Assembly (NCBI GenBank): GCA_043228905.1
Contig: JBHGNT010000020.1
Coordinates: 9,486,001-9,550,000, forward strand
Direction: 5' to 3'
From: Azolla caroliniana
Taxonomy: Eukaryota > Plantae > Polypodiophyta
Length of the DNA: 64,000 nucleotides
Under the pieces are notes generated by a model, which saw only the letters and a program-made list of their open reading frames with translations, was not told the origin of the DNA and did no database searches. Shown piece after piece: positions 6,082 through 34,996 of the stretch; the stretch's first letter is position 1, and each line of letters begins with the position of its first letter. The position numbers and the translations under genes were made by a program.

Positions 6082-9000
6082 TCATTGCGTGATTTTCGCG
6101 TTCCAAGCATGCGGGGCTTGCTTTCGTGTTCCAACCACGCGGGACCGTCGAAGTGTTCATTCCGGAGTGAAATCCGGGGGGTTGTACCATGTACACCTGT
6201 TCCTCAAGCGCGCCTTGCAGGAACGCATTCTTTACATCCATTTCATGTAAATGTCACCCCTTCGCCGCTGCTACGGCTAGTAGGACACACACGGTAGTCA
6301 TCTTCGCGATAGGCGCAAAGGTCTCGTCGTAGTCCACGTCATGCTTTTGCACGTAGCCTTTCGCTACTAACCGGGCCTTGTATCGGTTGACCGGGCCGTT
6401 GGTGTTGTACTTGACCTTGTATACCCACCTACATCCAATTGTCTTCACACCCTTTGGTGCATCAACTAGGTCCCAGGTTTCATTCTCCGCCAATGCGCAC
6501 ATCTCTTCCTCCATTGCGGCACACCAATTTGCGTCCTTTGCCGCTTTTGCGTAACTCTCCGGCTCACACACTTCTGCTACACGCGGCATGTACGCATAGT
6601 GATGCGCCATGTACTCGTTGTATTCGAACCGGACAACAGGGTTCTTCTGGCGGGTAGATCGGCGTAATTGCTCATCAGCCGATGTTGAGGCTTTCTTGGT
6701 TGAGGTGGACTTTGCTCTCAAAGGCCCGTCATCACTCTTCTCAGAGTCGGATGGATGTCGATCCGACTCGCCCTTATCCGTGCCGTACTCCGACATCTTC
6801 TTCTTCCCTTTTTCCTTGCGTGTAAACCTTCTCGTCGGCTTCCTACGCGGGGAATGCACGACCGAGTCTCCACTACTCGCCGGCTCTTCTCCGGCTTGGT
6901 CAAACCAACCTGGTCGCTCGTTCGGTCGACTTAGCCGAAATGAAATCGGACTCTCATTGAGGGTCTCGATTTCGCGGTCCTCCAAATGCATTTCAACCTC
7001 GCTGACCTCATCGTCAGAACTCGGGTCCAAAGGTCCAGAGTTGGAGTTGAGGTTCGGAGTTGGAGGCAAGTACTAGGATGCAGACTCGTCAAACACGACA
7101 TCGCGTCTCACGCGAGCTTGTTTGGTTCGGGGGTTATAACACTTATAACCCTTTTGTTCATCCAAATAGCCGACCAAGATACATTTCTCGGCTTTCGCGT
7201 CCAACTTCCTCCATTGCTCCTTCTGCACATGCACATACGCAATGCTACCAAAAACTCTCAAGTGTCGTAGATTCGGCTTTCTTCCGAAATGAAGCTCATG
7301 CGCCGACACTCTGTCTCCAATCCTATTCGGCCCAATAGAACTTGGGCAAGTTATTTTCTTCAAGCATTGCCCGCGCCGCTTCCACAACCGACCGATTTTT
7401 CCTTTCGGCTATGCCGTTTTGCTCCGGCGTATACCTGCAACTGAATTCGCGCCGAATTCCCATTTGTTGCAGATAACTGTTGAATTGGCCAGAAAAGTAC
7501 TCTTTTCCGCCATCCGACCGCAGGCACTTGATCTTTCTCCCTGTTTCCCTTTCTACGAAGCTTTTGAGGTCCCGAAAACAGTCGATACTTCACTCTTCTT
7601 TTCAATGAGATAGATCCACATGTGTCGCGTGTAGTTGTCGATGAAGGAGACAAAATATTGACTCCCGCCAAGACTAACGTTCGGTGTTGGCCCCCATACA
7701 TCCGAATGTATCAAGTCGAGCTTATTGCGACTCTGGTTAAGGTCGTTTGGGAAAGGAAGTTGGTGTTGCTTCCCTAGCTGGTAGGCTTCACAAATTTGGG
7801 CCTTCCGGCCACTAAATTTGGGCAATCCGAACACAACTTTTTTCGATTGCAAGTCCTGAAGCCTTTGATAGTTGACGTTGTCGTGAAGATTCCGGGCCAT
7901 CGGTAGAAAGAATGTGAAACGCGCGGGAGCACTCGTGCACACCCTTAGTGAATTAGATAGTGTAAGTACTAGGCATAGGAAAAAGGAGGCGTACTAGGGA
8001 GTTAAAGCATTAATAGGGATTTAGACATCGCGTAAGTAGGGAGAGTTACGAGGAGGGCAAATTAGGGGGGGAGAATTTAGGGAGTTAAAGCGACAAGGCC
8101 ATGAATGCTCTGTAACGGTTGCTCCTTGTGCTATAAAAGGGGCGACCCTCGACTGTTTTTGAGGATGTCAATTTTAGAGAGAGGAGAAAAGAAACAGAGA
8201 GAAAAGAAGACGAGGAGTCCTACGACGTGCCACCGGAAGGCGCTTACCTTGCTCGCGTCAGATGCTCGAGTGCTCTCGACCAGGGGATTGACCTTCTGTG
8301 TGCCCATTCATCTCCGTATCTAACTACTGTAGAGCCTACGCTCGAACACCGGCACTGATCCGGTTGTAATCACCCACAACACCACGCACATATATTGATT
8401 AATAGAAGCTTATCCACCGAACGCAAGTTATTCTTAGCATATCTGTCTACGCTTGTGTCTACGCACGTTCCTCTTACACTATCTCTCTCGTTTTGCTAAT
8501 CTTTCTGTTTAAACCGTGGTCTCAGGGCTGACGTAAACCACAAACTATTCCTCCTCACTTCTCGATTCCTTGGTTCAAGACCCTCGTGGTCCTGCCCAAC
8601 TTCTACGCATCTGCGAGGATTACCTCGACATATTTGGTGAACCCGACGTGAAGGGCGGCAAAGGAATCTGAAAATGAGAGGGAGCGAACTTGCAGAAGCA
8701 ATGGCGGTGGCGGTAGACCGCCTAGTTAGTGCTCGCGAGGGCGTGAGTGCCCTCGACAGGGCCATAGAAGCAACGGTCGACAAGATAGGCCGGTTCAGTG
8801 GAAAAGACGCCACGAGTTACTTAGAGGCCTACAAATATGAGATGTAGATGAGGAATATACCCGAGGATAGACAACTGACAGGGTTTTCCTGGGTCGTGAC
8901 ACCACACATCCATATAGAGATGACCGAAATACAAGCGGGTTGCCGTGATTGGGCGGAGTTCGCGGAGGAAGTTCTCGAAAGATACAGCTATGACGACTTG

Positions 9001-9533
9001 CTCTGGTTATTGAGAAAGGACTTTATGGATTGGGTCAACAACCCCGACAAGGGTCAAAACGCTTACGCGCTCCTCTAGGAGTTCGAGTCACGGTTCGTGC
9101 GGCTCTCTAGATTGGACCGAACCGTGCTCGAAACAAGCAAAGTTCTGTTTTTCGTTACGTCGTTTGACTCGCACGTCCGGGAAAGCATGGGTCTTCTTCT
9201 GGAAACCAACCGCGGTCTCACGATTGACTGGGCGACCGTCAAAGAAGTATGCAACAGGATTGACAAACGCCGAGATCGGAAAGAAAGGGAGTCCTCACGG
9301 GCCAGACCAGTTGTTGAAACTAGAGCCGAGCCGACACCGAGCCGACACCGACCCGAATGAAAGAAACGAGGAGGTGGCCTGAGCTAGGCCCACCCCCGAA
9401 AAACGTAGTCGCAGGGCCTGCAGGCGGCGTTGTCGTAGTGTATTTTGTACACTATGTGAAAAAGTAAAAATAATATAACCAATTTAATTACATATAAATA
9501 AATAAAATAAGAATATCAAAATATTTATCACGT

Positions 9534-9604
9534 GCATAGGGCAAGATTCAAACCCTGTACCTCCACGTAGCCAAACCTCAACTTTACCATTATGCTACCT
9601 TATC
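9534..9604 (-). promoter_or_regulatory. tRNA-like Pol III type-2 promoter cassette in E1 LTR (copy at 12374-12444)
   Basis: Minus strand A-box TAGCATAATGG (9597-9587) and B-box GGTTTGAATC (9554-9545), 44 nt from tRNA-equivalent T8 to G53. Confidence 0.6.
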
Positions 9605-10260
9605 TTTAATGTTCTACAAATAGATTTAATAACTATAAGTGCTTTATTTGCGCCTACCTTTATTAAAAGGTAAATCATGCATTTTTAGAGTGCGTGAATA
9701 TTTTATAGAAAAACGCAAGTAACTAAAAAGTGACTCATGCACATCTAGCGTGCATGAGCACTATATTTAGCAAATAAAAGCAAGGATTAGAAAAGCATCA
9801 CATGCACATTTAGTGTGCATGAACATATTAGAAAAAAAGAAGCATGTAGCTATGCTTAGTCTCTCCCATCACTACATAAGGATGGGGAGCACAATGTAAT
9901 AGGTGTGTGAAATATTTGGAAATTGGATATATTTCCGAAAACACCAACCGATTAATATAATCGTGGGATTCACGAAAATAATATAATCTATACTTGTGGG
10001 ATTCACAAGTTTCTTATATCTTTCTTTCAATCTAAATACATATTCTTATCTAAATATTGATTAATCGAATACAATACACTCGTGGGATTCACGAAATTTC
10101 TATCTCTCTTTCTAATAATCTATTCATTACTAGCCTCATCTCATATTCTTCTTTCTCCTAGTCCAAAACCTCAGTGGTTCCCACCCGACTCACGCAACGA
10201 TCCGGCGCCAAAAGGCACGACACATTTGGTGAACCCGACGTGAAGGCGGGTGGCAAGGAG

Positions 10261-12270
10261 ATGGAGAATCAACAAGAGGCGATGAACATGATGATGATGA
10301 TGGTTGAGCGGATGCAACAAGAACAACGCGCGATAACGGAGATGAAGGCAGCAGTAGAGCGGCTTGTGCGACGAAATGGGGAATTCAACGGAAATAATGT
10401 GTCACGCTATCTACGTGACTACAAAGGGGAGATGATGCAATGTGGGATACCGGAAGGATTGCAAGTGATATCCTTCAGTCGGGTAGCCACGGATGAGTTA
10501 CAAGAAAGAATCTACAAGATACGGCAACAAAATCCAACATGGGGGTCCTTTGAAGAAGCTTTACGAGAGGCATATGACTACGAGAGATCGAAGGGACGAG
10601 ATCGACGTGAGTTTGACGAATGGGTGGCATCGGAGAAGACCCACCGAAGTGCAACACAAGCATTCCTAGAGTTCAAGCATCATCTTGCTCGACTCTCGGA
10701 GCGGGAACAACGATTGGTGGGGGAGGATAAAGTCCTAATGTTCGTAAAATCGATCGATCGAAAAGAAAGGATGGACATCGGGATCGAACTCGAAGACGAT
10801 GACGGTACGAATGGTCTTACCGAAGATTGGGCCGAAGTCCAAAGGGTATGCCAGAGACATGATGAGAGGAAGATGAGAATCTTGTCAACGACATGGCCGA
10901 TGAAGGATGGTCGATTGAAGACAAACGATGGAGCCGATATGAAGGCCGAAATACAACATGATGGTGCGACGGAAGAGGGTGTAAAACAAGCTACCCTCTT
11001 GTCTTGCGAAAGAACAACAACGAAGGATAAGGCCGATAACCCAAGTGTAGAAGAAGATTTCAGAATACAAGTGTCTGAAACATCGGGTGAAAAAGGGGTA
11101 AGCATAATTGATGCAGTGAAAGAGAGCAAGGAGGACTTGATTGAGGAGGTCGCCACGAAAGATGACATCGAATCAAAGGTGGCTATGGACGAATCAACGA
11201 CGGATGGCCATATCGAGACTTCCCCACCACTGATTCCAAAGACTCCGACGGTTGCGTTCGAAAGGCAACGTGAGACCGAAGAGACGGAAGGTGGCGGAGA
11301 GAAAACAAAGGTCGAAGCCGATGCGTATGACGGAGAGATAGCCGAGAATATGGCTATGGGTGAAACAACGGAGGATGATAATACCGAGGATTCCTACCCA
11401 CTAATTCTAGAGACTTCGGCGGTTGTGTCTGAGAAACAATGTGAGACCGGAGAGACGGGAGGTGGCAGCAAGAAAGGTAAAGTCGGAAGCCGGTTCGGAT
11501 GGAAGGTGATCCGGACGGGATTCCGATCCGAAAGAAAGCCAAACCGGGTAAAAGAGGATTCGACCAAAAGTCGACCCGAAAGAAAGCCGAACCGAAAGGA
11601 AGAGAATTCGGCCGAAAGACGACACAAACGAAAGTTGAACCGGGCGAATGAGGATTCGGCCAAAAGACGACCCGAAAGAAAGCCGACCCGAAAAGGGGTC
11701 GACTCGGTCAAAACCGATCGACCGAGTCTGACTTGGCCGAACGCGAATATGGATGGAAGCCGACCTAGCCGAAAGCCGATCGGACGAGACCGATCCGGAA
11801 AGAAGCTAATCTGACTCAATCGGAGGTTGGACCGGTAGAGGCTGGTGAAAACGAGGAAAAGAAAGCCAACCGAAATCGAAACCGATAGATCGAAACCGGG
11901 CCAGAAGGAGACCGACTCAATCAAAACCGAACAACCGATTCCAATTCGGCCGAATACGAATCCGATCGGAAGCCGATCAAACCGAAAGTCGATTGGACGA
12001 GAGCGATCCGGAAAAAAGTCAAGGTTGATGAAGACAAGAAAGAGGCCAGTAAAAGACACTACCACAAATGACAAGGGCCAAGAATATGACGAGAGAGAAC
12101 AAAGAATATGGTGAATCGGATGGCGACAATGGTTCGGGTGGAAAGAATGGGTCTACTCAAAATGGAGAGACAAAGTTGACATAGCGGGACAAACGGAGGA
12201 TGAAGGGGAGACAACGAGCATCGGCAACTTCGGCACATACCGGAGGATGTGCGGGTTTGGAGGGGGCGAG
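10261..12270 (+). pseudogene. Gag-like ORF of E1 (Gag core + acidic region + Arg/Lys repeats + Trp-rich tail), broken by in-frame stops at 11812, 11836 and 12112
   Basis: Collinear with intact ORF 27529-29457; stops at 11812 and 12112 correspond to CGA and TGG codons in E2. Confidence 0.85.
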
Positions 12271-15088
12271 TGTCATAGTGTATTTTGTACACTACGTGAA
12301 AAAGTAAAAATAATATAACCGATTTAATTACATATAAATAAATAAAATAAGAATATCAAAATATTTATCACGTGCATAGGGCAAGATTCAAACCCTGTAC
12401 CTCCATGTAGCCAAACCTCAACTTTACCATTATGCTACCTTATCTTTAGTGTTCTACAAATAGATTTAATAACTATAAGTGCTTTATTTGCGCCTACCTT
12501 TATTAAAAGGTAAATCATGCATTTTTAGAGTGCGTGAATATTTTATAGAAAAACGCAAGTAACTAAAAAGTGACTCATGCACATCTAGCGTGCATGAGCA
12601 CTATATTTAGCAAATAAAAGCAAGGATTAGAAAAGCATCACATGCACATTTAGTGTGCATGAACATATTAGAAAAAAAGAAGCATGTAGCTATGCTTAGT
12701 CTCTCCCATCACTACATAAGGATGGGGAGCACAATGTAATAGGTGTGTGAAATATTTGGAAATTGGATATATTTCCGAAAACACCAACCAATTAATATAA
12801 TCATGGGATTCACGAAAATAATATAATCTATACTTGTGGGATTCACAAGTTTCTTATATCTTTCTTTCAATCTAAATACATATTCTTATCTAAATATTGA
12901 TTAATCGAATACAATACACTCGTGGGATTCACGAAATTTCTATCTCTCTTTCTAATAATCTATTCATTACTAGCCTCATCTCATATTCTTCTTTCTCCTA
13001 GTCCAAAACCTCAGTGGTTCCCACCCGACTCACACAACGATCCGGCGCCAAAAGGCACGATAGCGCAGGACTAGAAGAACTGACAAGGATGGTGCGCGAC
13101 CTCCAGATCGCCCATGCCCGGCGAAGCGACGAGGGTCAGCCGCGCGACTGACGACCGTTGGCCAATCAGAGGTGATATGGTGCGATGCCACCAAGCATTC
13201 CCGGAGATATTGCGCTGACCTCGGTGAAGCGCTTAGAAGTAATGTAGTCTATCTCTCGAATGGCAAGATACATGCGAGCGACACGCGAAGATTGCTTAAC
13301 GCGAATTTCGGACGAGGTGGCATGACGAGGCTAATGGAAGAAGCCGCGGCACGGCACGTCGAAGCCATCCACTACTCGGCTTCGGCCAACATCCGCGTAG
13401 GCAAGAGGGCAGCCAAACCCGATTCAAACCCTGGGTTCTGGTCGGTTGTTCTCGAGACCTTGTCTGGAGGAAGGTTGCAGAAGGGAGAGGCGGAGCGCGC
13501 GCAGGAGCGTGTGCGCGAAGTTACCAGCTGGAGTGACCCCGTTGAGGAGAGCACCGACTTTCTGGATGCCGCCTGCAGGAACTACGAGGCCCTGATCGAC
13601 GAAAGGCGAGCGAGGAAAACCGGAGGAGCGGGCCCTTTGGGGAGGTATGACCCCCGAAGCACGCCGAAAGGGCATGAGGCCACTCCAACCAGGTCCCAGG
13701 ATAAGGAGAAGGGCAAGACTCCAAGCTTCCATTTAAGCACGGAAATCGAGAAAACAACGAACCTACAAAAGGTTCAACAGGAGCGAGTTCTCGACAGTCG
13801 CATAGAACTCATGCTTAGGGAAGTGCTTGGCATAGAGAGAAGGGAATTCCACGACAACATCATGGACCTTGTGAAGAGAAAGCGTCTCACGACGGAACCG
13901 GAGCCCGAGAAGCCGGTTGAAGTAAGGACGACACTCCACTACGACTACAGAAACCCCTGTTCGTATCGGGGACGTGAAGGAACCGGTGGTAGCATTAATT
14001 GACCATGGGTCGGAAATTAACCTGATGTCCATGGACTTCTACAAAAATGGGAATTGGCCGATCAACACCAAACACGGGTGGAAGATACGCGTGGCTACAA
14101 GAGCCACGGAAGAACTACATGGGGCTTGCCCGAACGTCAGGGTGAGCGTCGGAGACGTCGATATAAACCAACACTTTTTCGTGCAAGAGACGTCTTCCCA
14201 CCTGGTCATCCTCGACAAACCATACATCATGGCGGCAAGAATGGAGACAAAAGTGCTAGACAATGGTTCAGTCTATGCGAGGGTTAAAAGTCAAGACGAC
14301 CGTCACTCCGTCCAATTTTTGACCGTTCAGAAGAATCACGAGCGGAACCGGGACACCCTTGGAAATAATGATAGGGCGGATTTTTAGAAAGGGCTATCAA
14401 GGCATGGGGCCGCGATAGTCCGTATAGCCGGAAAATTCCCCACACCTGTAAAATAGGAAGGAAAGTTTTGTTCTCTGACAACGGGGGATGTACCATAGCC
14501 AGCATCAGTGGCCGAGAAAGAAAACGGGCCGAGATACGCTTAAAGGCGTGCGGAGCCTTGAGTCACGACGAAGGAATTGGGGAAGTCGTGGAGGCGGTCT
14601 TGTTCGATGACACCCTTTGAGAAATTGGGAAGGTAGTTGAAGGAGGCCTAAGCGAAGACCGAGTCATACCAGTCAACTCGGTCAACATGTATGAAGTCAT
14701 TGCGGACATCGAAAGAAAAACCCGGGCGCATCGGACCGCCCGAGTAGACACCAAGTACAAGACTGTGGACCGGAAAGTGAAGCCCGTCGCGGCTCCCTTA
14801 CAGGAGGGCAGCTGGGAACGAATAAAGGGGGTCTTTACAGACCCGAGCTTGCGAGATCCGGCCGGCATAGGACACCGTTTCACCGACAAAACGCTACGAG
14901 AATTGAAGATTGGTAAGGGTGGCTTCCTACTGCCGATGGAAGAGGACCGGTTCAGAAGGATGCTCGAGAGGCATGTGAAAGCCTTCACATTCTCGCCGAG
15001 AGAGATCTAGTGCGTCGACCCGACCACTGTCGAACCAATGGTGATCTTTACCATGTCGCACGTCTGATGGAGCCTCAAACCGATTCAA

Positions 15089-16921
15089 GTGCCAAGAGCT
15101 CACATGCCCATGTTGATGGAGCTTCTTAAGCAGAAGGTGGAGCTGGGCATCCTCGAACCATCGAGTGCCCCTTACTCTAACCGGTGGTTTACGGTACCAA
15201 AGAAGAACGGTACGTTGCGCTTCATCCAGGACTTACAATCGGTCAACAAGGTGACCATCCGCAATACGGGAGTTGGGCCGTTGATCGATGAGTTCGCGGA
15301 AGCCTTCGCCGGAAGGTCCATATACTCGGTCGGAGACCTTTACTCGGGGTACGACCAGTTCCAGCTGGCCGTGGAAAGCAGGGAAATCACAACAATGCGA
15401 ACCCCTCTCGGCCTAGTTCAAATGTGTACCCTACCACAGGGAGGGACCAACTTGGTGGCACACATGGTAAATGCAATGAACAGAGTCTTGCGGGACTGTA
15501 TTCCAAACATCACCATGCCTTTCCTGGACGACATCCCTACCAAGGGGTGTCCGGAGGGGTGCCGAAGGTTTGTCACCGACCATATCTCCGACTGCGAGAA
15601 AATACTACAGAGGCTCGAAGGTGCGCGGCTTACCTTCTCAGGAGAAAAGTTGACCTTCGGACAGCCAGAGATCTTAGTGGTGGGCCATCTATGTGGGTCG
15701 TACGGACGGAAGCCATCGCTGATCAAGGTAGAGGCCATTTCGGCAATGGAGGAGTGTGAATCCGTCATAGAGGTTCGACGATTCTTAGGAGCATGTGCCT
15801 TTTACCACATATGGATCCCTCATTATGCGCACGTCGCCGAACCACTCTATGGCTTGCTAAAAAAGAGCAGGAAATTCGAATGGACAAAGGAACATACCGA
15901 GGCGGTCCAGAGGCTAAAACGAATGCTCAGCACAGCACCAGCTTTACGCAAAGTAGAATACGCACCGAGAACTCCAGTCTACATCACGGTGGACACCAGC
16001 CCGACCGGGATTAGATGGGTCGTAAATGAAGAGGACGAAGATGGCATGCGTTTCCCTATCCGGTTTGGTGCGAAGGTACTGAGCGAGCGACAACGAGGAT
16101 ATGCCCAAGTCAAGCGCGAGCTATGGGGCATCGTTTCAGCGGTTAAGGTCAACAAAGATTATCTAATCGGGACAGAAGTGATTATAGAAACGGATTGCCT
16201 GCCGATTCTCGGTATGGTCTCCGGATGCGCAACTCCCGACCTGGCCATGCTTAGGTGGATTGTGTACATCAAGTCCCTGAACCCAGAGATACAACACATC
16301 TTGGGTAAAGACAACGCCATGGCCGATATGCTTTTCAGAGCAAGGTTCGAGGACGAGGACGATATGGTATCGGAGAATGAAGAAGTCGGCACGGACTTCT
16401 TCGAATCGGCAAGGATGAGGATAAAAGGTAGAAGCGCTCCACCCCTGAACGAGTTCGACGAAGACGACTATGACGGGGAGTGGCTTCTAATCGGAAGGTT
16501 TCTAAAAACAATGACGGGGGACCCCACGATGACTAGGAAGGAGGCGGGACAGCTCCGAAAAAGGGCATACCGGTACTTCTTACGGAATGGGAAAATCTTG
16601 AGGGACCCAAAAAGGAGAAATGACGCGCCGCTCCGGGTAATAACGCGGGCGGATGATCAAGAGAAGCTAATATCGGAGTTCCACGAAAGCCCTTGGTCTA
16701 GACACCGGGGTACGTGGGCCACATTCAAGAAGATAAAGGAAAAATACTGGTGGCCAAGTATGTATAAGAGCGTGCACGACTTCGTGTCCACGTGCGAAAG
16801 CTGCCAGATGCACTCGGTCGTTCGACACCGTGATGAGCTGCACCCAACCTACCCCCCGACTGTGCACTTCAAATGGATGGTAGACTTAGTAACCATGCCG
16901 ATGGGAGAGGGTCAGAAGTGA
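15089..16921 (+). pseudogene. Gypsy D pol (RT, RNase H, integrase Zn finger)
   Basis: PKKNGTLRFIQD, DLYSGYDQ, FLDD, VRRFLG, YAQVKRELWGI, H..H..CESC; PR-RT-RH-INT order. Confidence 0.9.
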
Positions 16922-19013
16922 TACCTGGTGCTAGCTAGAGAAGACCTAACGAACCAGGCAGAGGGCCGAGCACTAACGAATAAGACCACCGCGGAAGTAT
17001 GTAAGTTTCTGATAGAAGATGTCATATGCTGATACGGGTGCGTCGGAAAAATTGTAGCTGACCGAGGAGAGCTAGATGCGGAAGAGGCCGAAGAATTGTT
17101 CGATTGGCTAGGCGTAAAACTGTTCCTCACAACAGCGTACAACCTAGAGGCAAATGGAAAGATAGAGCGAGGCCACAGTCCGATCGTAAAGGCCATTGTA
17201 TGCGCGTGCGAAGGGCGAGTCGGCGACTGGCCAAGGTTGCTCCCTTACATGCTATGGGCGGACCGGACTACCCATAGTTCGGTGATAGGGTACATGCCGG
17301 CGAAACATATCTGTCTACGCTTGTGTCTACGCACGTTCCTCTTACACTATCTCTCTTGTTTTGCTAATCTTTCTGTTTAAACCACGGTACGGTCTCAGGG
17401 CCTACGTAAACCACAAACTCTTCCTCCTCACTTCTTGATTCCTTGGTTCAAGACCCTCGTGGTCCTGCCCAACTTCTACGCATCTGCGAGGATTTCCTCG
17501 ACAACGTGGCCTATCCGCTTGTGCCGCAAGTCAATATCCGAATCGACTCTTTGTCCTTTTGCGAACATTGCGGTGCCAACGTCATTGGTGTTGAGGATAA
17601 ACCACCTCCCATCTCTGCGCCCATGCTCAATAAGTTGGCCTTCCTCCTCGATGAAGCACCCGAGATGCGTGAACCGGACTTGCATCCCCTGGTTGACGAT
17701 CTGGCGGACCGACACCAGATTCTTCGTGATTGTCGAGACGTGTAACACGTTCATGAGATTCCCTTTTTGCCCGACATGGCTCAGGGGAACTTCACCGACA
17801 TTCTCGATCGGATGCGGAGTGTCGTCTCCTGTTGCAACTACTCCCGGTTGCATCGGTTTCTCAAGGTATGAGAACCACTCCTTATGGCTCGTCATGTGGT
17901 TTGACGCGCCAGAGTCAATGTACCACACCTCATCCGATTTCGGGGTGGTCTTCTTCATCGAGTTCGCTTCGTGTCTCGCCACGAAGGCTGCCCCCTTTCC
18001 GACTTTTTCGGATCCTTCGGTGTAGTGCAATCGCTACCGATTTCCTTTGTTGGTTTGTCCGGATCCGGATCCGGTCTTCTCTGAATCGGCGCACGTCTTC
18101 CAGCACTCACTCTCCTTGTGGCCTTTGTTGCCACATTACCAACATTCCATGATGGATTTCCCTTGCCGATTCTCGTTGCCTCAACTCCCCTTGTTTCCGG
18201 TGGGTCCGGAATTGCTGTCGGCATCACTTCGGTGCCTTCTTCCTTGATCCTGTCAGCTGCTTCCATTGCACACCGACTCGCCTTGTCCGCCATGACCACG
18301 GGGCCTATCTCCCTCCGTGTACAACATCTTGCTATCGGTGTGCGTGCTCGTCGACGCACCCACGTGGTTCTCCTCTATAAGGAGCATCAAATGTAGGTCG
18401 AAAAATGACGACGTATTCTCCCGTGTGCACACAACAGTTCGGAACGCTCTGAAGTTCAACGCTAGTTCCCCGAGACAGATCTGCACCATCTCACCTTCCT
18501 CGATGTTCACATCGATGGAGGCTAAGGAGTCGCATATCTCTTTGATCTTCGAGGTGTAATCAACCACAGACAAATCGTGTTGTCACAAATTGCTCAACTC
18601 CTGTCGGAGTTGGAGCTTTCTGGCTGTGGTGGTTGTGGCGAAAATCTTTTTCAGATTTCCCCAAGCATCCTTCGGCGTTTTTGCATCCCGAATATAGCTC
18701 AGAAGTTGTTCGCCCGCACAAGACGCGAAGCAGTAGAGAACTCTGCTCACCGACTGTTCCCAAGCTGGGAAGTCTTTGTGTGTCGAATCGGGTGCCGTGT
18801 CATGTGCTCTATCCATGCCCGAGCAGGTACTGGTGCATCTTGTACGACGAAGACGCGTAGTTGTTTCTGTCGAGCTTCTCGGTCAGAAGCGAGCTAGCCA
18901 TGCCTCTATCCATTTTGTTTTCCTTGTTCTTTACGAATGTTAGGTTTTCTTCTCGAGCCAAGGCCATTTTGTATTAGAGCGCGAGGGTTCTCAACCCTCG
19001 CGCTCTAATACCA

Positions 19014-19435: not shown

Positions 19436-19999
19436 ATTATGTTGAGCTTGATTCACAACAAGTATAATGCTAACGACTTTGTCAATTGCTATAAAGCTCG
19501 AATCAAAGTGAAAGGATACAGAGCCGACTGATGATCGATCTTAGGATTCGTGTTCTCTCTCGAAAGGGGAGCCATCTCTTGGAGCAACAAGAAGCAACCG
19601 ACCGTCGCACTTTCGAGCACATAGGCCGAATACAAGGGCGTGGTTATGGTTGCATGTGAAGCTGTTTGGTTGAAGAGAATATTTAAGGATCTGGGCATTC
19701 CCATCAAGGATCTGATTCCCCTTTATTGCGACAACATGAGTAGTATTCATCTGGCTCAAAACCTGGTGTTCCACTCGTGCACGAAGCATATCGAAGTGCA
19801 CTATCACTTCATCTGAGAGCGCGTTCAGGCTAGACATCAACACGAATATTCAGACAACCGACATCTTCACCAATGCCCTAGAAGCTGACAAGCTTCGGCA
19901 ATTCATGTTAGACCTTGGATGGACGATCCCTGACTTGCCAAGCTTGAGGGGGAGTACATACAAGAGAGAACCAGATACCAGCCAAAGCAAACATTGTCA

Positions 20000-20071
20000 T
20001 GATATGGCAAGACTCGAACCCATGACCTTATACTACATGGGTCGAGCTCTTGACCATTAGACTATACATTG
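20000..20071 (-). promoter_or_regulatory. tRNA-like Pol III type-2 promoter cassette at the start of the chromovirus LTR (copy at 25223-25294)
   Basis: Minus strand A-box TAGTCTAATGG (20064-20054), B-box GGTTCGAGTC (20020-20011), 45-nt T8-G53 spacing. Confidence 0.6.
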
Positions 20072-20178
20072 TAATACATAGAATATTATTTTCATTTATG
20101 TTTTATTATAGAAAATTGATGTATATTCCAGATTTCTCTAGAACATTCTAGAAACTTCAGGAGTATTCCTTAGAACAC

Positions 20179-20444
20179 TATAAAAGGAGGCACAAGGCAT
20201 TATTTCGAACCAAATCGGTTCAACGCCAGTCTTAAGCCTCCTAGCTACTGTACATTTTCTTCACATAATATATATCTTTTCTTATCATCACACACACTCT
20301 CTCTCTCTCTCGATCTCTCTCTCCCTCCTTCTCACTCACTCTTTCCTTCTCTCGAGAGTTCTTCACCTCTCTTAGTACTAATACTTCTTTTAGTACTAAT
20401 TCCTTCTCTGTCTTAGTACTATTCCTGACAGTTTGAACCGATTT
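20179..20444 (+). promoter_or_regulatory. TATA box, predicted transcript start and self-priming PBS of the chromovirus
   Basis: tataaaa 20179-20185; aaatcggttcaa 20212-20223 is the exact reverse complement of ttgaaccgattt 20433-20444; no TGG tRNA PBS. Confidence 0.8.
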
Positions 20445-23400: not shown

Positions 23401-26129
23401 ATTTTCTGGAGGGATCCTCTCATCCGGTCACCATATTTAGTGACCATAAGAACCTTGCCTACTTTCAGGATGCTCGTGTGTTGAATCGACGTCAAGCTCG
23501 GTGGGCCCACTTCCTCACGCATTTCGACTTCAAAATTACATATCGTCCGGGGAAGCACCAAGGGAAGGCAGATGCATTATCACAGCGTTCGTATCTAGCA
23601 CCCCGTCCCGGCGAGCCAGCTTTCGATAACAAAAAACAAGTCATCTTGGGACCGGCACGACTACAAGCAACAAAGATCTTTGACATGCCCATGGATTCCC
23701 GCGTTATAGATACCATACGCGAAGACTTTGAGACAGATGCGTTCGCCCAAGCTATACTAGCACAAATTGATCCCTCTCGAGCGTCGTGTTCACAATCGCA
23801 ACCACCATGTACGGACTATCGGCAATTCAAATACCATGATGGATTACTCTTCTTTAAAGAATTTTTGTATGTTCCTAATGGTTCTTGCCACCTTCAAGTA
23901 GTACAAAACTGTCATGACACATATATAGCTGGGATTTTGGTAGTACTAAAACACTACATTTAGTACAACGATCATTCTGGTGGCCCTGTATGCGACAATT
24001 TGTCGAGGATTTTGTTCGGACTTGTGATACATGCTGCAAAGCGAAAATGCCAAGGCATCATCCATATGGTTTATTAGAACCATTACCAATTCCAAGCAAG
24101 CCGTGGCAATCCATTGCTCTAGACTTCATCACAGATCTTCCAATCTCTAAGGGGTTCAATGCGATTCTAACGGTGGTCGATTGATATACGAAGATGACTC
24201 ATTTCTTGCCATGTACTAAGGAGATCTCCAGTGAAGACACTGCCGAAATTGTCATGCGTGAAGTATGTCGGCATCATGGACTTCCCGATAGTATCATCAG
24301 CGACCGTGGACCCCAATTCGTGTCAAAATTCTGGAAGCACCTTTTTAACATGCTCAAGGTCACTTGTAACCTCTCCTCCGGTTACCACCCACAAACCGAT
24401 GGCCAAGCCGAACGAACCAATCAAACGCTGGAGCAGTATCTGCGGTGCTTTCTCAGCTATCATCAGGATGACTGGGCAAATATTCTCCATTTCACCGAAT
24501 TTGCCTATAACAACTCTATCCACGCATCCACGAAAGTTACGCCATTTTATGCTTATACGGGATGTCACCCCCGGTTGTGTGTACTTGAAACCCTAGAGGT
24601 GTCCACAAATCCTTGCGCAGAGGATCGTTTGGAGAGGTTACCCAAGATACAAGCGGATTTATCTACTCATCTCCAACAAGCTCAACAAACACACAAGGTT
24701 TATGCGGATCATCATCGACTCCCATCTAGTTTTAACATTGGAGATCAGGTATGGCTACTCCGACGACACATCAAGACTACTCGCCCATGCGAGAAGTTGG
24801 ATTATCGGCGATTAGGTCCTTTCCGTATTATTGGAAAGATTAATGATGTCGCTTTTCGTCTTGATCTACCTCCACAACTTCGGATACATCCGGTGTTTCA
24901 TAGTTCTCTCCTCGAACCCTATCAAGAAAGCACCATCACCATCCCAGGACGTATTACACAGCCTCCACCCCCGATCAAGCTTGAAGATGGACCTAAGTAC
25001 GAGGTTGCCGCCATCCTTGATTCCAAGCTTGTTCGCAACAAGCTCTACTATCTAGCCGACTGGCTAGGATATAGTCCCAGCGAGTGTACTTGGGAACCGA
25101 TAGAGAATGTCACCAATGCTCGTGCTCTTCTTGAAGACTTCCATCGTCAATATCCAGACAAACTGGGTCCTCAATCCAAAACGACTCGTTACACTCGTCG
25201 TTTTAAAGGGGGGATAGTGTCATGATATGGCAAGACTCGAACCCATGACCTTATACTACATGGGTCGAGCTCTTGACCATTAGACTATACATTGTAATGC
25301 ATAAAATGTTATTTTCATTTATGTTTTATTATAGAAAATTGATGTATATTCCAGATTTCTCTAGAACATTCTAGAAACTTCAGGATTATTCCTTAGAACA
25401 CTATAAAAGGAGGCACAAGGCATTATTTCGAACCAAATCGGTTCAATGCCAGTCTTAAGCCTCCTAGCTATTGTACATTTTCTTCACATAATATATATCT
25501 TTTCTTATCATCACACACTCTCTCTCTCTCCCTCCTTCTCACTCACTCTTTCCTTCTCTTGAGAGTTCTTCACCTCTCTTAGTACTAATACTTCTTTTAG
25601 TACTAATTCCTTCTCTATCTTAGTATTGTTCCTAACAGACATTAGCTGACATGGACACCATAAGAAGGCCAAAAGCCAAAAGCCGACCAAAGTTAAGCTT
25701 GAGGGGGCATGTTGAGAATCAAGCTCAACATAATCTAGTGTGTGAACACACATTTTGAGAATCTATGAGCACTCATAGGTCAAAGGTCACCAATACTTTT
25801 TATACATTAACTATACGTCATAGAATCATATTCTATGACACATAACTAATTGTTGGGAAACAAGGTCCCTCCATATGGGAAGGAGAACACAAACCGGATC
25901 AGTTGGATCCGAAGGAGAATAAAGGCCGGACGCGGATCTGGATAGGCATCCGAAAGAGGCCACATATGTAAATAGGTTTAGCGTTGCACCTATTTAGGTC
26001 AGATTTGTAAATAGTCCTAATTTATATAAGTATAAATATAAATGGGGCAAAAACATTAGGTATGAAGTTCATATTGTTGTAATAATGTGATAGTGTGAGA
26101 GAGAGTGTGAGACATGGAGACATAGAGAC

Positions 26130-26169
<40 letters not shown>

Positions 26170-26857
26170 AGAGCGTGTTGTTGCATCTCTGTTGTACCCG
26201 CCATCTAGCGAAGAAGACGAGCCCAGGGTCTTGCCTGGTAGTCTCTCTGTATTTCCTTTCGCATAGTGACATAGCTTGGAGTCTGTGGACTCCCGTGGTT
26301 TTTCCCTGTTAGGGTTTTCCACGTAAAACATCTTGTGTCACTATACTTGTGTATTTCTGTTTCCTGTTTTGTTTGTTCAAATCTTTCACCAGCATACATT
26401 ATAGTATAAACCGGTTGTGGCCGTCTTCGATCTCAACAAACTGGTATCAGGGCGATGAAAGACTCATTTGGCGGCATGTTCAAACTAACCGGCTCCAACT
26501 ATTCAGTGTGGAAATCGAAGATGAGGGACATGTTGGTGTTCAAAGATTTATGGTTGCCGATGCAGTAATGTAAGACCAAACTAGACAAGATTGATGCATC
26601 GACTTGGGAAGTCATGCACCTGAAGACAACATCATACATAAGATGTTTTATAGACATGAATCTATACAACAACTTCAACGAGGACAACAAGGCGGATGTC
26701 TTTTGGGAGAAGATTGACATTATGTTTGAAAACAATAATGTCGTTAACAAAGTCTCCGTTGTCGTAGTGTATTTTGTACACTACGTGAAAAACGTATATA
26801 GTATTAGATTCAATAAAAAATGAAGAAATAGAAGAAAATAGCAAAATAAATGGAACA

Positions 26858-26929
26858 TGCATAGGGCAAGATTCGAACCTTGCACCTCCATGTTAATAAT
26901 GTAATGTCTTACCATTACACTAGCATTTC
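26858..26929 (-). promoter_or_regulatory. tRNA-like Pol III type-2 promoter cassette in E2 LTR (copy at 29612-29683)
   Basis: A-box TAGTGTAATGG (26922-26912), B-box GGTTCGAATC (26879-26870) inside a GCAAG/CTTGC stem; T4 run downstream at 26846-26843. Confidence 0.65.
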
Positions 26930-27528
26930 ATTAGTGTTAAAGCATAGATGTCCCACATAGAAAGGTAAATTCACGCTAGGATAAACATTAGAAAAACGCA
27001 TAACAAAAGAAAAAGCTACACATACACATCTAGCGTGCATGATAAAAAACGCACAAGTTAGAAAAAAAGCATGATCACTTTAGATAAAGCATATAGTCTA
27101 TCTATAGGAAAAGCATGGGGTCTATAGTTAGAGAAAAAGCATAGATTACTAAGACTTCCTCATCACTACATAAGGATGGGGAGCACAATGTAATTGTGTG
27201 TGAAAAAATATTTGGAAACTGGATATGTTTCTAAAAAACACCAATTAATAAACTATACTCGTGGGATTCACGAGGATTCTATATCATTCTCTTTCAACCC
27301 AAATTTATATTCTTATATTCATATTGATTAATCAAATACAATACACTCGTGGGATTCACGAGTTTGTTATAACTCTTTCTTACAACATATTTATATTCTT
27401 ATTAGCCTTAAAACTCTCCTCTTCCTAGTCCAAAACCCCAGCGGTTCCCACCCGACTCATGCAACGATCCGGAGCCGAAAGGCACGACACAAGTTGGTGA
27501 ACCCGACGTGAAGGCGGGTGGCAAGGAG

Positions 27529-29457
27529 ATGGAGAATCAACAAGAGGCGATGAACATGATGATGATGATGTTCGAGAGAATGCTACAAGAACAACGCGAG
27601 ATGTCGGAGATCACGACAGTAGTACAACGGCTCGTGCAACGGAACGGGCAATTTGATGGAAAGGATGTGTCACGCTATCTACGTGACTACAAGGCGGAGA
27701 TGATACGATGTGGGATACCGGAAGGATTGCAAGTGACATCCTTCAATCGGGTGGCCACGGATGAGCTACAAGAGAGAATCCACAAGATACGGCAACAAAA
27801 CTCGACATGGGGATCATTCGAAGAAGCTTTACGAGAGTCATATGATTACAAGAGATCGAAGGGACAAGATCGGCGAAAATTCGACGAATGGGTGGCATCG
27901 GAGAAGACCCACCGAAGTGCAACACAAGCATTCCTAGAGTTCGAGCATCGTTTTGCTCGACTCTCGGAGCGGGAACGAAGATTGGTGGGAGAAGATAAAG
28001 TCTTAATGTTCGTAAGATCGATCGATCGGAAAGAAAGGATGGACATTGGGATCGAACTCGAAGATGATGACGGTGCGAACGGCCTTACCGAGGATTGGGC
28101 TAAAGTCGAAAGGGTATGCCGAAGACATGATGAAAGGAAGCTGAGAATCTCGTCAACAACGACATGGCCCATGAAGGATGGTCGATTGAGGAAAAACGAT
28201 GAAGCCAATATGAAGGCCGAAATACAACATGATGGTACCACGGGAGAAAGAGTGGAACAAGACACCCACTCGTCTTGTGAAAGAACGATGGCGAAGGATA
28301 AGGCCAATAATTCAAGTGTAGAAGGAAATTTCGGGATACAAGTGCCCGAGACATCGGGTCAAAAAGGGGTAAGCATAATAGATGTTTGCATAATTGATGC
28401 AGATAAAGAGTGTGAAGCGGATGTGATTAAGGAGGTAGCCACAAAAGACGAAATCGAATCGGAGGTGGCTATGGACGAATCAATGGCGGATTGCCATATC
28501 GAGACTTCCCCACCACTGATTCCAGAGACTCCGGCGGTTGCGATCGAAAGGCAACGTGAGACCGAAGAGACGGAAGGTGGCGGAGAGAAAACGAATGTCG
28601 AAGCCGACGAATACGATGAAGAGATAGCCGAGAAGAATGCTAAGGGTGAAACTACGAAAGAAGGTAATACCGAGGATTCATGCCAACAATATCTAGAGAC
28701 TTCGGCGGTTGTGTCCGAGAACCAACGTGAGACCGGAGAGACGGGAGATGGCGGCGAGGAAGGTAAAGTCGGAAGTCGGTTCGGATGGAAAATGATCCAT
28801 CCGAAATTCCAATCTAAAAGAAAGTGCGACAATGCGGAGGTCGGGTCTACGACGGGAGAAGCGCGTAATACAGAGCACGCTCTACGGCGAATAAAGAAAC
28901 GCGTGTTATGGCGAATAAAGAAGCACGCGCTACGGCGAGAAAAGAAGCATGCATTACAACCACACGAGGACCGAACAACGAGCACATATCGGAGGACCTA
29001 CGTGGCGAACAACGGAAAGAAGTGCCGAAAGTCGAACCGGACAAGGCAGGTGAAAACGAAGAAAAGAAAGCAAATCCGGACGAAAAGAAAAGAAAAGAAA
29101 CCGACCCGAAAGAGCACTGAATCGGTAAAAACCGATCAACCGAGTCCGGATCGACCGAATACAAATCGGAAAGGAAGCCGAACTAAACGAAAGACGATCC
29201 GACGAGACCGAATCGGAAGTAAGCTAATCCGACTAAACCGAAAATCCGAAAAGAAGTCGAGATTGATGAAGAAAAGAAAGAGGGCAAGAAAAGATACTAC
29301 CGCGGATGACAAGGACCAAGCGGGCCATGCAAAAAGCGAACATAGAATATGGTGGATCGGATGGCGACAATGGTTCGGGTGGAAAGAATGGGTCTACTCA
29401 AAATGGAGAGACAAAGTTGACATAGCGGGACAAACGGAGGATGAAGGAGGAGACTAA
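27529..29457 (+). CDS. Intact 642-aa Gag-like protein of E2
   Basis: N-terminal ~210 aa resemble Gypsy D Gag (GQFDGKDVSRYLRDYKAEM vs GRFSGKDATSYLEAYKYEM; GLTEDWAKVERVC vs GLTIDWATVKEVC), followed by acidic, basic and Trp-rich segments. Confidence 0.88.
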   Translation: MENQQEAMNMMMMMFERMLQEQREMSEITTVVQRLVQRNGQFDGKDVSRYLRDYKAEMIRCGIPEGLQVTSFNRVATDELQERIHKIRQQNSTWGSFEEALRESYDYKRSKGQDRRKFDEWVASEKTHRSATQAFLEFEHRFARLSERERRLVGEDKVLMFVRSIDRKERMDIGIELEDDDGANGLTEDWAKVERVCRRHDERKLRISSTTTWPMKDGRLRKNDEANMKAEIQHDGTTGERVEQDTHSSCERTMAKDKANNSSVEGNFGIQVPETSGQKGVSIIDVCIIDADKECEADVIKEVATKDEIESEVAMDESMADCHIETSPPLIPETPAVAIERQRETEETEGGGEKTNVEADEYDEEIAEKNAKGETTKEGNTEDSCQQYLETSAVVSENQRETGETGDGGEEGKVGSRFGWKMIHPKFQSKRKCDNAEVGSTTGEARNTEHALRRIKKRVLWRIKKHALRREKKHALQPHEDRTTSTYRRTYVANNGKKCRKSNRTRQVKTKKRKQIRTKRKEKKPTRKSTESVKTDQPSPDRPNTNRKGSRTKRKTIRRDRIGSKLIRLNRKSEKKSRLMKKRKRARKDTTADDKDQAGHAKSEHRIWWIGWRQWFGWKEWVYSKWRDKVDIAGQTEDEGGD

Positions 29458-32073
29458 CAAACACCAACAACTTCGGCACATACCGGAGGATGTGCGGGTT
29501 TGGAGGGGGTGAGTGTCGTAGTGTATTTTGTACACTACGTGAAAAACGTATATAGTATTAGATTCAATAAAAAATGAAGAAATAGAAGAAAATAGCAAAA
29601 TAAATGGAACATGCATAGGGCAAGATTCGAACCTTGCACCTCCATGTTAATAATGTAATGTCTTACCATTACACTAGCATTTCATTAGTGTTAAAGCGTA
29701 GATGTCCCACATAGAAAGGTAAATTCACGCTAGGATAAACATTAGAAAAACGCATAACAAAAGAAAAAGCTACACATACACATCTAGCGTGCATGATAAA
29801 AAACGCACAAGTTAGAAAAAAAGCATGATCACTTTAGATAAAGCATATAGTCTATCTATAGGAAAAGCATGGGGTCTATAGTTAGAGAAAAAGCATAGAT
29901 TACTAAGACTTCCTCATCACTACATAAGGATGGGGAGCACAATGTAATTGTGTGTGAAAAAATATTTGGAAACTGGATATGTTTCTAAAAAACACCAATT
30001 AATAAACTATACTCGTGGGATTCACGAGGATTCTATATCATTCTCTTTCAACCCAAATTTATATTCTTATATTCATATTGATTAATCAAATACAATACAC
30101 TCGTGGGATTCACGAGTTTGTTATAACTCTTTCTTACAACATATTTATATTCTTATTAGCCTTAAAACTCTCCTCTTCCTAGTCCAAAACCCCAGCGGTT
30201 CCCACCCGACTCACGCAACGATCCGGAGCCGAAAGGCACGACACCGTGTTCCATGTTGTTGATCAGTGAGCAGAACGAAGTGAATCTTGTCGGCGATGAA
30301 TCGACATGGGTGGTTGACTCTAGAGCGTCGTTTCACCTGACCCCTGACCAGAAGTGCTTCTCATTGTACAGAGTCAGAGACCACGATTTTGTAAAGATGG
30401 GAAATGAAGGAGCATGTTGAATCATCAGCATAGGAGATGTGTGTTTGGAAACGTCGTGCAGATTAGTGCTGAAGGATGTTCAACACATTCCAGAAGTAAG
30501 ATTGAATCCGATATCGAAAAACTTAATAATGTTACATCTAAACATCTTGTACTCTAAAAAAAAAGGGAAGAGGCCATAAGCTTGGATTCATTTGATTCTC
30601 TATCAAACAAGGATGACAATGGAAATTTGAGCATAGAATGTAAATCTACATGCTAGATTGCCTTAATTTTGATGAAAGATGAATTCGGAATCTCATGTCA
30701 AAGTGCTTGGTGCATCAACATCTTGGGGATTTTACAAGGTTCGTGACGTAATTTTCGAATTGCGAATTCAAGTTGTAGACCAAATTTAAGTCATTAGTGA
30801 AAGAAAATTAACTAATGATGCGAATTGAACGCATAACACTGAGTTGAAACTCAACACTCCAGGTTGATGTAGGACTCTCCGTGGTTTTAATCCATTGAAA
30901 GCCCCTTCTTGAAGGGCATCCTTGGAATTTAAATTCACAAAGGGTTTACATGAAATTTTCCACAAAGGGAGGGAGTAAGGAGGAGAAGAGAGGAAGAGGC
31001 TAGGCCCAAAAGACTATATACACATACACGTCAATACATAACAACATAACTTCACATTTCAATCACATATACATAAACATTCATACAAATATAATGCACA
31101 TGCATGCAAATATAAACATATATACATACTTACAAGTTACACATGTAACTATATACATACATCTTTCTTTTAGTAACACTTTTATTACTAGTGGGAAGCC
31201 TCAAAGTGAGGTGAAAACCCATAAAGAATAAAGAGAAATATACAAGTGTCGATTAGACACTAAAGAGTTTAGAAGCACTCAAAGTAAAGATTGCAAATTT
31301 GTAGTGTGATGTCTCTAAGTTGCAGACAATCAAATAGAGATTGTCTGAGTAGTTGCTTAAAGAAGCTAACTTCATGCCTTTGGTTTTGATCAAAGACCTT
31401 ATTATTGCGGACCATATACATACACATATGCACATTTCCACGTATTGATATTTATGTATATATATACATAAATATGTGCATATTTGTATGTTCATACACA
31501 CACACACACACACTCAAGTACACACATGCATTGTATTTTGCATGCATGGGTTGAACATTATATACATAGCCATATTTATGCACACATACAAGACAACCAT
31601 ATAAATACTCTTATATGCCTAGGCACTCGTGAACTCACACATTTACTTAAGCACTCATATACACACTTGATTATACTATTAAAACTCTTATCAACAACAT
31701 TCAAAGGAAGCTTAAAGCTAGTACAACTGATAAATTTGAGGCTCTTGATCATCAATTGGAGCCAATCCCATGTTCCATTGTTTAGGTTTTCCATGTGGTT
31801 CTACGCACATTTCACACTCATGTGCATAACTCCACAACAACGAAGTATAATAAGATGTGATTGCATGTGTTTGTTGCCATATGTTAGGTTTACCTAAATG
31901 CCATTATATTTGAATTTGAAATTATTCACTTGGATGTGAGGGCCTCTACTAGGCATATGGTTCAATGGCCATCATAAGCAAATCATCAACGATCGTCTCA
32001 AATTGTGCATTCACATTCCATTCCTTTACTAGTTTGCATGCCCAACTAGAAGAGGTAAGGATTAGCAAACCAG

Positions 32074-33863: not shown

Positions 33864-34996
33864 ATGGGATCAGAAATGGTGAGAAGAGAAGAAGTATCAT
33901 CTCCTGAGAGTGCGATCAAGAAGCGATCATCACGTCGTCCCAAAAAGATGCCCGCTGATGTGACGCCAGAGGAGGCATATTATCGAACTCTCACGCCTGT
34001 TTGCAACAAGTGCGGACAATACAACACAGAATTCCGCTACTTCAACAACCGCTATCGAACTCCCGGCAGCCGCGTGTCGAACTTCGATCAGCCGCGTTAC
34101 AGGTGCATCTCTCCCTGCAACTTTGAGTTCACATACAGAAGCGACGGGCAGAGCATCAGCAAGAAGAAGTCGAAGAGGAAGAAGACATGCAATACTGTCG
34201 AGTCCGAGTCCACAGCTCATGGGGCCAACAACATCAGCAGCATTATCGGCTTGCCTAGTGATCATCATCAAGAATTGGAGGCTTCTTTTAGCCCTTGGAC
34301 CAAATTTATGACAGGTGTGCACTTCTCTTCTCTTCTTATATAAAGCTTGGAAGCCAGTTAGTTATGTACGTAAACAATTTTGATGCTAATTAGGGGTATA
34401 TGACAGATGATGATAATTGTACAGGAGCGCCGGATGATCCAATAACGCTACTGTGGGACTGCCAAGTCACAGTGCCTGAAACAGGAGCCTACATCTACCC
34501 TACAATGTCAACCACCTGTGCTCCTACAATTTTCAACAGCAACAGTATCGCAGGGATGCCTGATGATTTGATTATGCTCCCAGATGATCCGATTATGCTA
34601 CCAGATGATCCAATTATGCTGGAAACAGGAGCCTACGTCGACCCTGTAACAATGTCAACCACCTGTGCTCCCACTAGTGCTCCTCCTCCAATGTTCGAAA
34701 CAGACACTAACATAGCATCGTCTTGGCCTCCAACTGCCAGTGATGAAGCCATCTTGCAATACCTAGCCCATGAGCTGCTTTGGGACGATGATATGCTTCC
34801 AGAACTACAGGAACAACCATTGTCAACTGATGTACAGCCACTTGACAGTGCTCAAGTGGCACCCTTATCTACATCTAATCTTGTGGATCATCATCATCAT
34901 AGTGATTTGATGATGATGATGGGGAACCAGCATAGCCGCGACAATGTGCCACCGGCCCTGAGAGATTATTTTGCAATGCTGCAACATATTCTCTAG
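33864..34996 (+). CDS. Divergent Dof-like C2C2 zinc-finger protein, probably 2 exons (33864-34314; 34407 or 34425-34996)
   Basis: CNKCGQYNTEFRYFNN...QPRYRCISPC resembles Dof CPRCxSxNTKFCYYNN..QPRHFC; basic KKKSKRKK follows; phase-1 GT donor at 34315 and in-frame AG acceptors at 34406 and 34424 join an acidic, Pro-rich ORF. Confidence 0.65.

Follow-up and report, generated by a model that had tools for sequence, protein, structure and literature searches.

Introduction

TR-GAG elements are shorter than 4 kb and consist of a long terminal repeat (LTR), a primer-binding site (PBS), a single gag open reading frame (ORF), a polypurine tract (PPT) and a second LTR; they lack pol and occur in many copies with target site duplications (TSDs) (PMC4350172), and their mobility has been demonstrated in Arabidopsis (PMC8704663). 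An automated table, with its column order inferred, assigns one TR-GAG to Ceratodon, six to Selaginella and none to P. patens (PMC10025401). The Phygy clade, described from moss, is marked by a 4-bp NCGN TSD and, in 81%, a tRNA-Trp PBS (PMC6317226). Here, we analyze E2, an element within a 64,000-nucleotide stretch of Azolla caroliniana DNA (assembly GCA_043228905.1, contig JBHGNT010000020.1, positions 9,486,001 to 9,550,000, forward strand; hereafter the window), together with a second copy, E1, and the family E to which both belong. Family E is a pol-less chimera that likely arose by a double template switch, is probably copied and inserted by the enzymes of an autonomous family, A, and probably contributes its own capsid-like protein to A's particles.

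E resembles TR-GAGs in its length below 4 kb (3484 and 3632 bp), its PBS, PPT and TSD, its gag-only content and the repeated insertion of a conserved structure. It differs in its 4-bp NCGN TSD, against 5 bp in TR-GAGs, and in lacking the Pfam Retrotrans_gag or UBN2 match that defines TR-GAGs in practice; having neither a Pfam gag match nor a zinc knuckle, E is likely missed by TR-GAG pipelines. TR-GAGs have been seen as separate derivatives of different full elements (PMC4350172), whereas the old lineage of E comprises several families and appears to have changed partner. [quoted passage not shown] However, RLG_Quinta descends from its helper and swapped whole gags among its own lineages, while the body of E does not come from the helper; furthermore, RLG_Quinta and its partner RLG_Cereba belong to the CRM chromoviruses of grasses (PMC11302176), and E is of Phygy type. 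The RLG_Sabrina, WHAM and Wilma and RLC_Angela systems likewise include several semi-autonomous gag families around autonomous partners, with variants in which the gag region is replaced, and host switches by LTR transfer have been proposed (PMC9744471). In contrast to E, Sabrina and WHAM retain Gag-protease, and the Angela switches run between subfamilies and involve LTRs, with no crossover inside the capsid (PMC9744471).

The 4-bp NCGN TSD, the tRNA-Trp PBS and a polyprotein filling the interior of A, of a further autonomous group, B, and of D, an element of group B, agree with Phygy elements, although the autonomous elements here measure 7.1-7.9 kb against 7.7-10.0 kb (PMC6317226). No chromodomain was seen in A, B or D. 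Assignment of E, A, B and D to the Phygy type is supported by the published TSD and PBS marks rather than by an RT, RNase H (RH) and INT tree. The available passages of PMC6317226 mention no non-autonomous Phygy partner, and the literature searched, with subscription papers, Repbase and bioRxiv supplements outside the search, yielded neither a gag-only Phygy partner nor a helper switch inside the capsid. The general kind is already known, since gag-only partners, gag exchange and helper switches have been described for TR-GAG and wheat elements; within that literature, what is new is a Pfam-invisible Phygy-type system, the capture of a helper by a crossover that lies within the capsid, and a thriving half-capsid variant. 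The TR-GAG and wheat papers ask why gag is kept and by what route non-autonomous LTR elements come to a helper or exchange one for another. For such questions this genome is a natural experiment: next to a young helper family it has a gag-only lineage, a capture mapped to the lobe boundary and a half-capsid variant, so that Gag co-assembly and cis preference can be tested domain by domain. E also exemplifies an abundant element class that Pfam-based annotation would miss.

Results and discussion

Family A as the likely partner of E

Sampling of 40 other Trp-primed loci (20 consecutive and 20 chosen, 15 of the latter for an E-like or unusual spacer) revealed a second autonomous family, A, which is absent from the window and has at least 334 copies. 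Termini, leader and PPT of A are the same as in E, and A LTRs cover 44-100% of E LTRs, whereas those of D, of the sister group B to which D belongs, and of the pol-less family N4 cover none. The two families thereby share PBS, LTR termini, PPT and a homologous LTR, the characters by which pairs are recognized in PMC11302176. Among 24 A loci examined, 18 were resolved, both ORFs being full length in 5 of them; insertion ages overlap, with a median LTR divergence of 0.25% (18 A) and 0.14% (46 E). The Gag proteins of E and A are 55% identical, rising to 75% over aa 1-102. These similarities make A, and not D, the likely partner of E.

The first-pass annotation had considered E a parasite of D that keeps and extends a D-type Gag. 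D carries the TSD ACGT and the same PBS as E and has the termini TGTCGTGA...CTCGACA; its pol, to which the A pol is 65% identical, contains Pfam domains for RT, RNase H and integrase arranged as in gypsy elements. Derivation from and mobilization by D is favored by the common PBS, 4-bp NCGN TSD, TGTCGT..CGACA termini, hairpin before the PPT and homologous Gag core, as well as by the location of E1 in D. However, LTR coverage between D/B and E is 0%, the PPT differs, and E2 has no internal nucleotide similarity to either, which refutes an origin from D. The Gag core is only 34% identical to D, against 75% to A, and E groups with D/B in neither lobe tree. We regard a D-derived, D-driven E as very improbable; the same LTR, leader and 3' end designate A instead.

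Chimeric origin of family E

Similarity of E2 to A extends from the LTR to around ORF nt 300 and resumes in the final ~100 nt ahead of the 3' LTR, where the end of the A integrase frame lies. The interior matches the pol-less families N2, N3 and, most strongly, N4 of the same genome; ~1.6 kb of it has no counterpart in A and matches N4. N4, found via the database protein P0005, has at least 103 copies, and its matched part is stop-free in 57 of 70 scored copies. In a MaxChi analysis, informative sites were divided 110:13 between A and N4 before ORF nt 295 and 26:145 after it, a contrast reached by 0 of 2000 permutations. Approximately unbiased (AU) tests reject the grouping of E with gag-only families for the capsid N-lobe (p 0.022) and with A for the C-lobe (p 0.0007); the trees of the two protein halves disagree, and one common history is rejected. 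The crossovers lie at about codon 98 on the 5' side and ~100 nt before the PPT on the 3' side.

The second half of the protein was alignable in 151 of 232 fetched proteins, many of them close relatives, and 76 were too short to class. Among the 34 proteins with a zinc knuckle or protease, identity to the second half of E is 39% at most (0/34 have an E-type C-lobe), whereas 41/41 proteins with gag-only tail motifs reach at least 55%. Given this C-lobe split, the gag-only body is one lineage, and E is the branch of it that bears A's ends. The C-lobes of A (18/18 copies) are only 38-40% identical to that of E. Judged from sequence, E is a chimera with A-type ends and N-lobe and a remainder from an older gag-only lineage, which has at least four families in this genome; A's ends and N-lobe were likely taken by recombination. 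Accordingly described, the protein is not an extended D-type Gag, since all that follows the N-lobe has been replaced, the region of the zinc knuckle and protease among it.

Independent deletion from a full element with the same LTRs, the alternative that the first-pass annotation itself named, would fit the A-type ends and the remnant of the A integrase end. The copies nevertheless share the ~1.6 kb interior that is found in N4 and not in A, equal ORF lengths recur at many loci, and the A C-lobes reach only 38-40%, so that, on the autonomous families sampled, this explanation is hardly credible. Regarding the related families, N3 (L098, L107, L109) has lost most of the capsid C-lobe and has a doubled tryptophan motif, and L171, L182, L099, L117 and L115 represent more Trp-primed families with divergent Gags, some with pol.

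Structure of E2 and E1 in the window

The intact plan annotated for E2 is confirmed (Table 1), with the PBS at 27495, the TSD CCGT and LTRs identical at 728/730 positions (2 mismatches) that have the termini TGTCGTAG...CACGACA. The 3' end of the genome's tRNA-Trp(CCA) has 63 genomic matches, and ARAGORN calls tRNA-Trp at 4/4 tested loci. E1 has the same plan within D gag, as annotated, with LTRs identical at 783/792 positions (9 mismatches) and a TSD, GCGT/GCGC, with one mismatch. Its ORF stops after 517 codons, and the frame then passes 3 more stops to an E2-type tryptophan motif, which identifies E1 as a decayed copy. No pol was found in E2 or E1, except for 16-33 codons of the helper integrase end.

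A contig from DNA run X2 joins the E2 flanks (26755/30244) without E2, and represents either an allele lacking the insertion or a further copy of the Copia element that hosts E2. The hairpin before the PPT is present in all Trp-primed families and is likely a common cis signal; when E/A, B and N2 are compared, it shows two base-pair changes that look compensatory.

Table 1. Coordinates of E2, E1 and D in the window.
Feature	Position	Strand	Remarks
E2, whole element	26760..30243	+	3484 bp
E2 left TSD CCGT	26756..26759	+	NCGN type; insertion within decayed Copia-type gag
E2 5' LTR	26760..27489	+	730 bp; homologous to family A LTRs, not to D/B or N4
E2 PBS	27495..27511	+	Complementary to tRNA-Trp(CCA) 3' end
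E2 only ORF	27529..29457	+	642 aa; no Pfam match, zinc knuckle or protease
E2 capsid N-lobe (aa 1-108)	27529..27852	+	A-type until crossover at ~27823 (ORF nt 295)
E2 capsid C-lobe (aa 111-209)	27859..28155	+	Gag-only lineage; 72% identity to N4, 38-40% to A
E2 acidic tail	28156..28773	+	Internal repeats; 206 aa with 52 D/E and 21 K/R; common to N2-N4
E2 basic tail	28774..29328	+	185 aa with 67 K/R; at least 3 exchangeable versions; putative RNA-binding role
E2 tryptophan-rich motif (aa 608-626)	29350..29406	+	In frame across gag-only families
E2 A-derived 3' end	29412..29513	+	Integrase ORF-end remnant; hairpin 29476-29495; PPT 29502-29513
E2 3' LTR	29514..30243	+	PPT directly adjoins
E2 right TSD CCGT	30244..30247	+	Matches left TSD
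E1	9431..13062	+	3632 bp; second copy, other LTR variant, premature stops; nested in D gag
D	7879..17503	+	Decayed autonomous Phygy-type element of sister group B; PBS and TSD type as E; not the source of E

Predicted fold of the E protein

The AlphaFold model of aa 1-210 contains two helical lobes, with a mean predicted local distance difference test (pLDDT) score of 86 and a weak linker at 107-112. The best structural matches to the model are the Arc, Copia, PNMA2, PEG10 and Ty3 capsids, whose N-lobes align on residues 37-107 and C-lobes on 111-206. The top row has a Z-score of 9.8 and a root-mean-square deviation (rmsd) of 6.3 over 159 aligned residues, and the Arc N-lobe has a Z-score of 8.7 and an rmsd of 2.0 over 69. 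Foldseek ranks the same capsid proteins first, with no match at E 0.001. At E 0.1 the 642-aa protein matched no Pfam family, and the ESM Atlas matches are Retrotrans_gag clusters below 0.9, which serve as a lead only, with no match for the C-terminal 83 aa. Identity to A Gag combined with the modelled fold makes a capsid-like E protein likely.

The crossover falls in the last N-lobe helix, ~10 residues before the linker. The capsid is followed by an acidic stretch, a basic stretch and the tryptophan motif, and no counterparts of A's zinc knuckle and protease were found in the E protein. The basic tail is predicted to bind RNA as a stand-in for the absent zinc knuckle. That the GW pairs of the tryptophan motif act as an Argonaute hook stays a guess, for which one literature search yielded no supporting paper.

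Copy number, age and target sites

The 523-Mb genome contains 4,154 LTR-end plus Trp-PBS sites, a lower bound. The exact 36-nt E leader occurs 319 times and its reversed control sequence 0 times, so family E is not a chance pattern; the E 3' coding motif has 497 exact matches genome-wide. Counting exact matches only, the copy number of 319-497 is a lower bound. The first 60 regions of the leader list provided 63 E-leader records at 59 loci, none of which has pol on its own strand, 6 records having no LTR pair in view. Among 46 E elements with clean LTR pairs, the TSD is perfect in 42 and of NCGN type in 42/42 of these, and the LTRs are identical in 15. The LTR divergence of E2, 0.27%, corresponds to roughly 0.15 million years at a substitution rate of 9e-9.

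ORF lengths recur across E loci, with 12 copies at 1446 nt and 10 at 1848 nt, and E copies are mosaics of exchangeable modules. The genome-wide search thus bears out the abundant, young and long-lived family that had been proposed from two subfamilies, with many more subfamilies than two. The family extends beyond this assembly, given that E-related sequence also occurs in DNA runs labelled as a second organism and that contigs labelled as two further organisms contain more distant relatives. Runs presumed to be RNA yielded only short or diverged related contigs, or nothing, which speaks neither for nor against expression. Tandem E arrays of the form (LTR-body)n-LTR lie under a single TSD at G000:C12:3.268-3.281 Mb (L167, L168), C6:15.499-15.508 Mb (L170), C5:13.228-13.234 Mb (L169) and C3:11.233-11.243 Mb (L062); in the C5 array the unit measures 1166 bp and has lost most of the ORF.

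Selection on the open reading frame

The ratio of nonsynonymous to synonymous substitution (dN/dS) was calculated from variants common to at least 3 of 66 E copies. It was 0.45 for the N-lobe (p 0.0004 vs neutrality) and 0.28 for the C-lobe (p 0.00007), with values of 0.80-1.18 for the acidic and E1-type basic segments. Pairwise dN/dS was 0.14-0.36 for the lobes and <0.17 for the tryptophan motif. Stop codons in the 66 copies comprise 17 private and 0 shared, a contrast that is imperfect because methylation biases private mutations. Among 62 loci, the 3' anchor is found in 51, with the motif in frame in 49 and the ORF open to the motif in 35. Shared clean ORF indels are all multiples of three (5/5, 6/6 and 2/2 by reference; 8 distinct events), compared with 2/12, 4/25 and 5/25 of shared LTR indels. 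After the tryptophan motif the frame is free (distances of 90-93 and 131 nt), which fits the motif as the last functional peptide. Both capsid lobes are under purifying selection, and the tail is kept in frame but near neutral; neutral evolution of the ORF, previously raised as an objection, applies at the amino-acid level to the tail alone.

An open frame serving only RNA stability or export, by avoiding nonsense-mediated decay, with an idle protein and packaging of E by A Gag, would accommodate a tail dN/dS near 1 within an open frame and the loss of the C-lobe. It is improbable in view of the amino-acid constraint on both lobes and the tryptophan motif and the freedom of the frame beyond that motif. 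Additionally, synonymous divergence (dS) of the N-lobe from A reaches 0.6-0.75, pointing to constraint at the protein level rather than purely at the RNA level.

Proposed mechanism and hybrid elements

Under the reading of E as a chimera served by A, N4-like RNA was most probably packaged together with A RNA, and two template switches placed the N4-like body between A's ends. A single switch most likely brought in the A-type N-lobe along with the 5' cis signals, and the N-lobe most likely persisted since the crossover lies close to the boundary between the lobes; its presence may also make mixing with A Gag easier. Transcription from the A-type LTR would be followed by translation of the E ORF, and E RNA would enter particles also holding A Gag-Pol, where A's RT would copy it from tRNA-Trp before A's integrase inserts it at NCGN. 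E would add its capsid-like protein to these particles, with the basic tail binding RNA instead of a zinc knuckle, and copies without a C-lobe would rely on A or full-length E capsid for the shell.

Three of 49 E elements join A and E sequence: in L045 the initial ~228 nt of each LTR come from A (45:1 and 46:1 sites), the LTRs on either side of L123 are A-type, and in L044, whose TSD is intact, an A 5' LTR is joined to the element at the PBS. One complex locus has the order A LTR, N4 body, N4 LTR, A body. The hybrid A/E LTRs suggest traces of co-packaging. Elements with three LTRs have been attributed to template switching (Sabot and Schulman 2007, PMC1950507), and the LTR-body-LTR-body-LTR order under one TSD recurs here within and between families; in distinction to that report, the complexes here join different families, gag-only and autonomous included. 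Three-LTR complexes with two families joined at the PBS were observed at L190, L191 and L195 (G000:C4:9.31-9.72 Mb) and L187 (C9:17.10 Mb); the C4 complex has the TSD ACGG and the same flanks at three loci.

Several observations weigh against this reading. For a helical protein, structure Z-scores that peak at 9.8 are moderate, and in Foldseek all E-values exceed 0.001. The acidic tail drifts, with a dN/dS of 1.00 (confidence interval 0.63-1.59) vs N4, and the N-lobe of E is less constrained than that of A (0.14-0.36 vs 0.08). The C-lobe is missing in 18/53 sampled E copies, which can thus do without a complete E capsid in cis. Hybrid LTRs can also stem from recombination after insertion, and one N4/E hybrid has a mismatched TSD, while the A/N4 complex has no testable TSD. 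B-type elements, which have the PBS, hairpin and TSD type of E, could also mobilize it. Finally, the N-lobes of N2-N4 are only about 24-43% identical to any sampled autonomous family; since N4 is nevertheless abundant, with mostly open ORFs, elements do not in general need an N-lobe that matches the helper, and helpers may accept various partners. A helper-matching N-lobe was considered as a requirement and is weakened, no autonomous family with an N4-type N-lobe being found among 16 extra loci with N4-type LTR ends.

Half-capsid copies

In the copies without a C-lobe, another in-frame segment, partly 84% identical to the N4 tail, follows from the linker on; these copies are as young as other E copies. 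C-lobe packing is the conserved core of the Ty3 and HIV shells (PMC6525542), and a normal lattice is therefore not expected from such copies alone. Packaging of its own RNA in its own Gag, as first proposed, cannot hold for the whole family.

The E protein may instead be an adaptor or interfering factor rather than a shell supplier, comparable to a satellite or to the Ty1 p22 factor, with the N-lobe docking on the helper capsid and the tail bringing its own RNA or disturbing A. We consider this unlikely. The equal youth of C-lobe-less copies agrees with it, as do the constrained N-lobe, the frame open through a partly N4-derived replacement, the similar variants in outside records (P0003, P0004, P0007) and the absence of the zinc knuckle and protease region; moreover, the Ty3 N-lobe binds itself and the C-lobe (PMC2878294). 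Against it, the C-lobe is kept under purifying selection in two thirds of copies, N3 has no C-lobe and yet no helper-type N-lobe either, and the docking is putative. Similarly doubtful is a broader proposal that an old satellite-like gag-only lineage changes helpers by swapping ends and lobes, its protein acting as a plug-in adaptor whose helper-type N-lobe docks in the shell while the element's own RNA is loaded through the basic tail and the tryptophan motif, which would explain the spread of half-capsid copies.

Other features in the window and genome

A chromovirus-type gypsy element occupies window positions 19995-25638, with Retrotrans_gag and zinc-knuckle matches and an end that is presumably chromodomain-like. 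At positions 33864-34996 lie two ORFs, possibly a diverged host gene; the first of them weakly matches the Dof zinc finger (E 0.02). An AT-rich cluster of direct and inverted repeats with ~120-170-bp units spans 44690-46400. Elsewhere in the genome, clusters or tandem arrays of the tRNA-Trp 3'-end motif at G000:C8:17.80-17.82 Mb, C16:4.99-5.11 Mb and C5:10.11 Mb are probably tRNA gene arrays.

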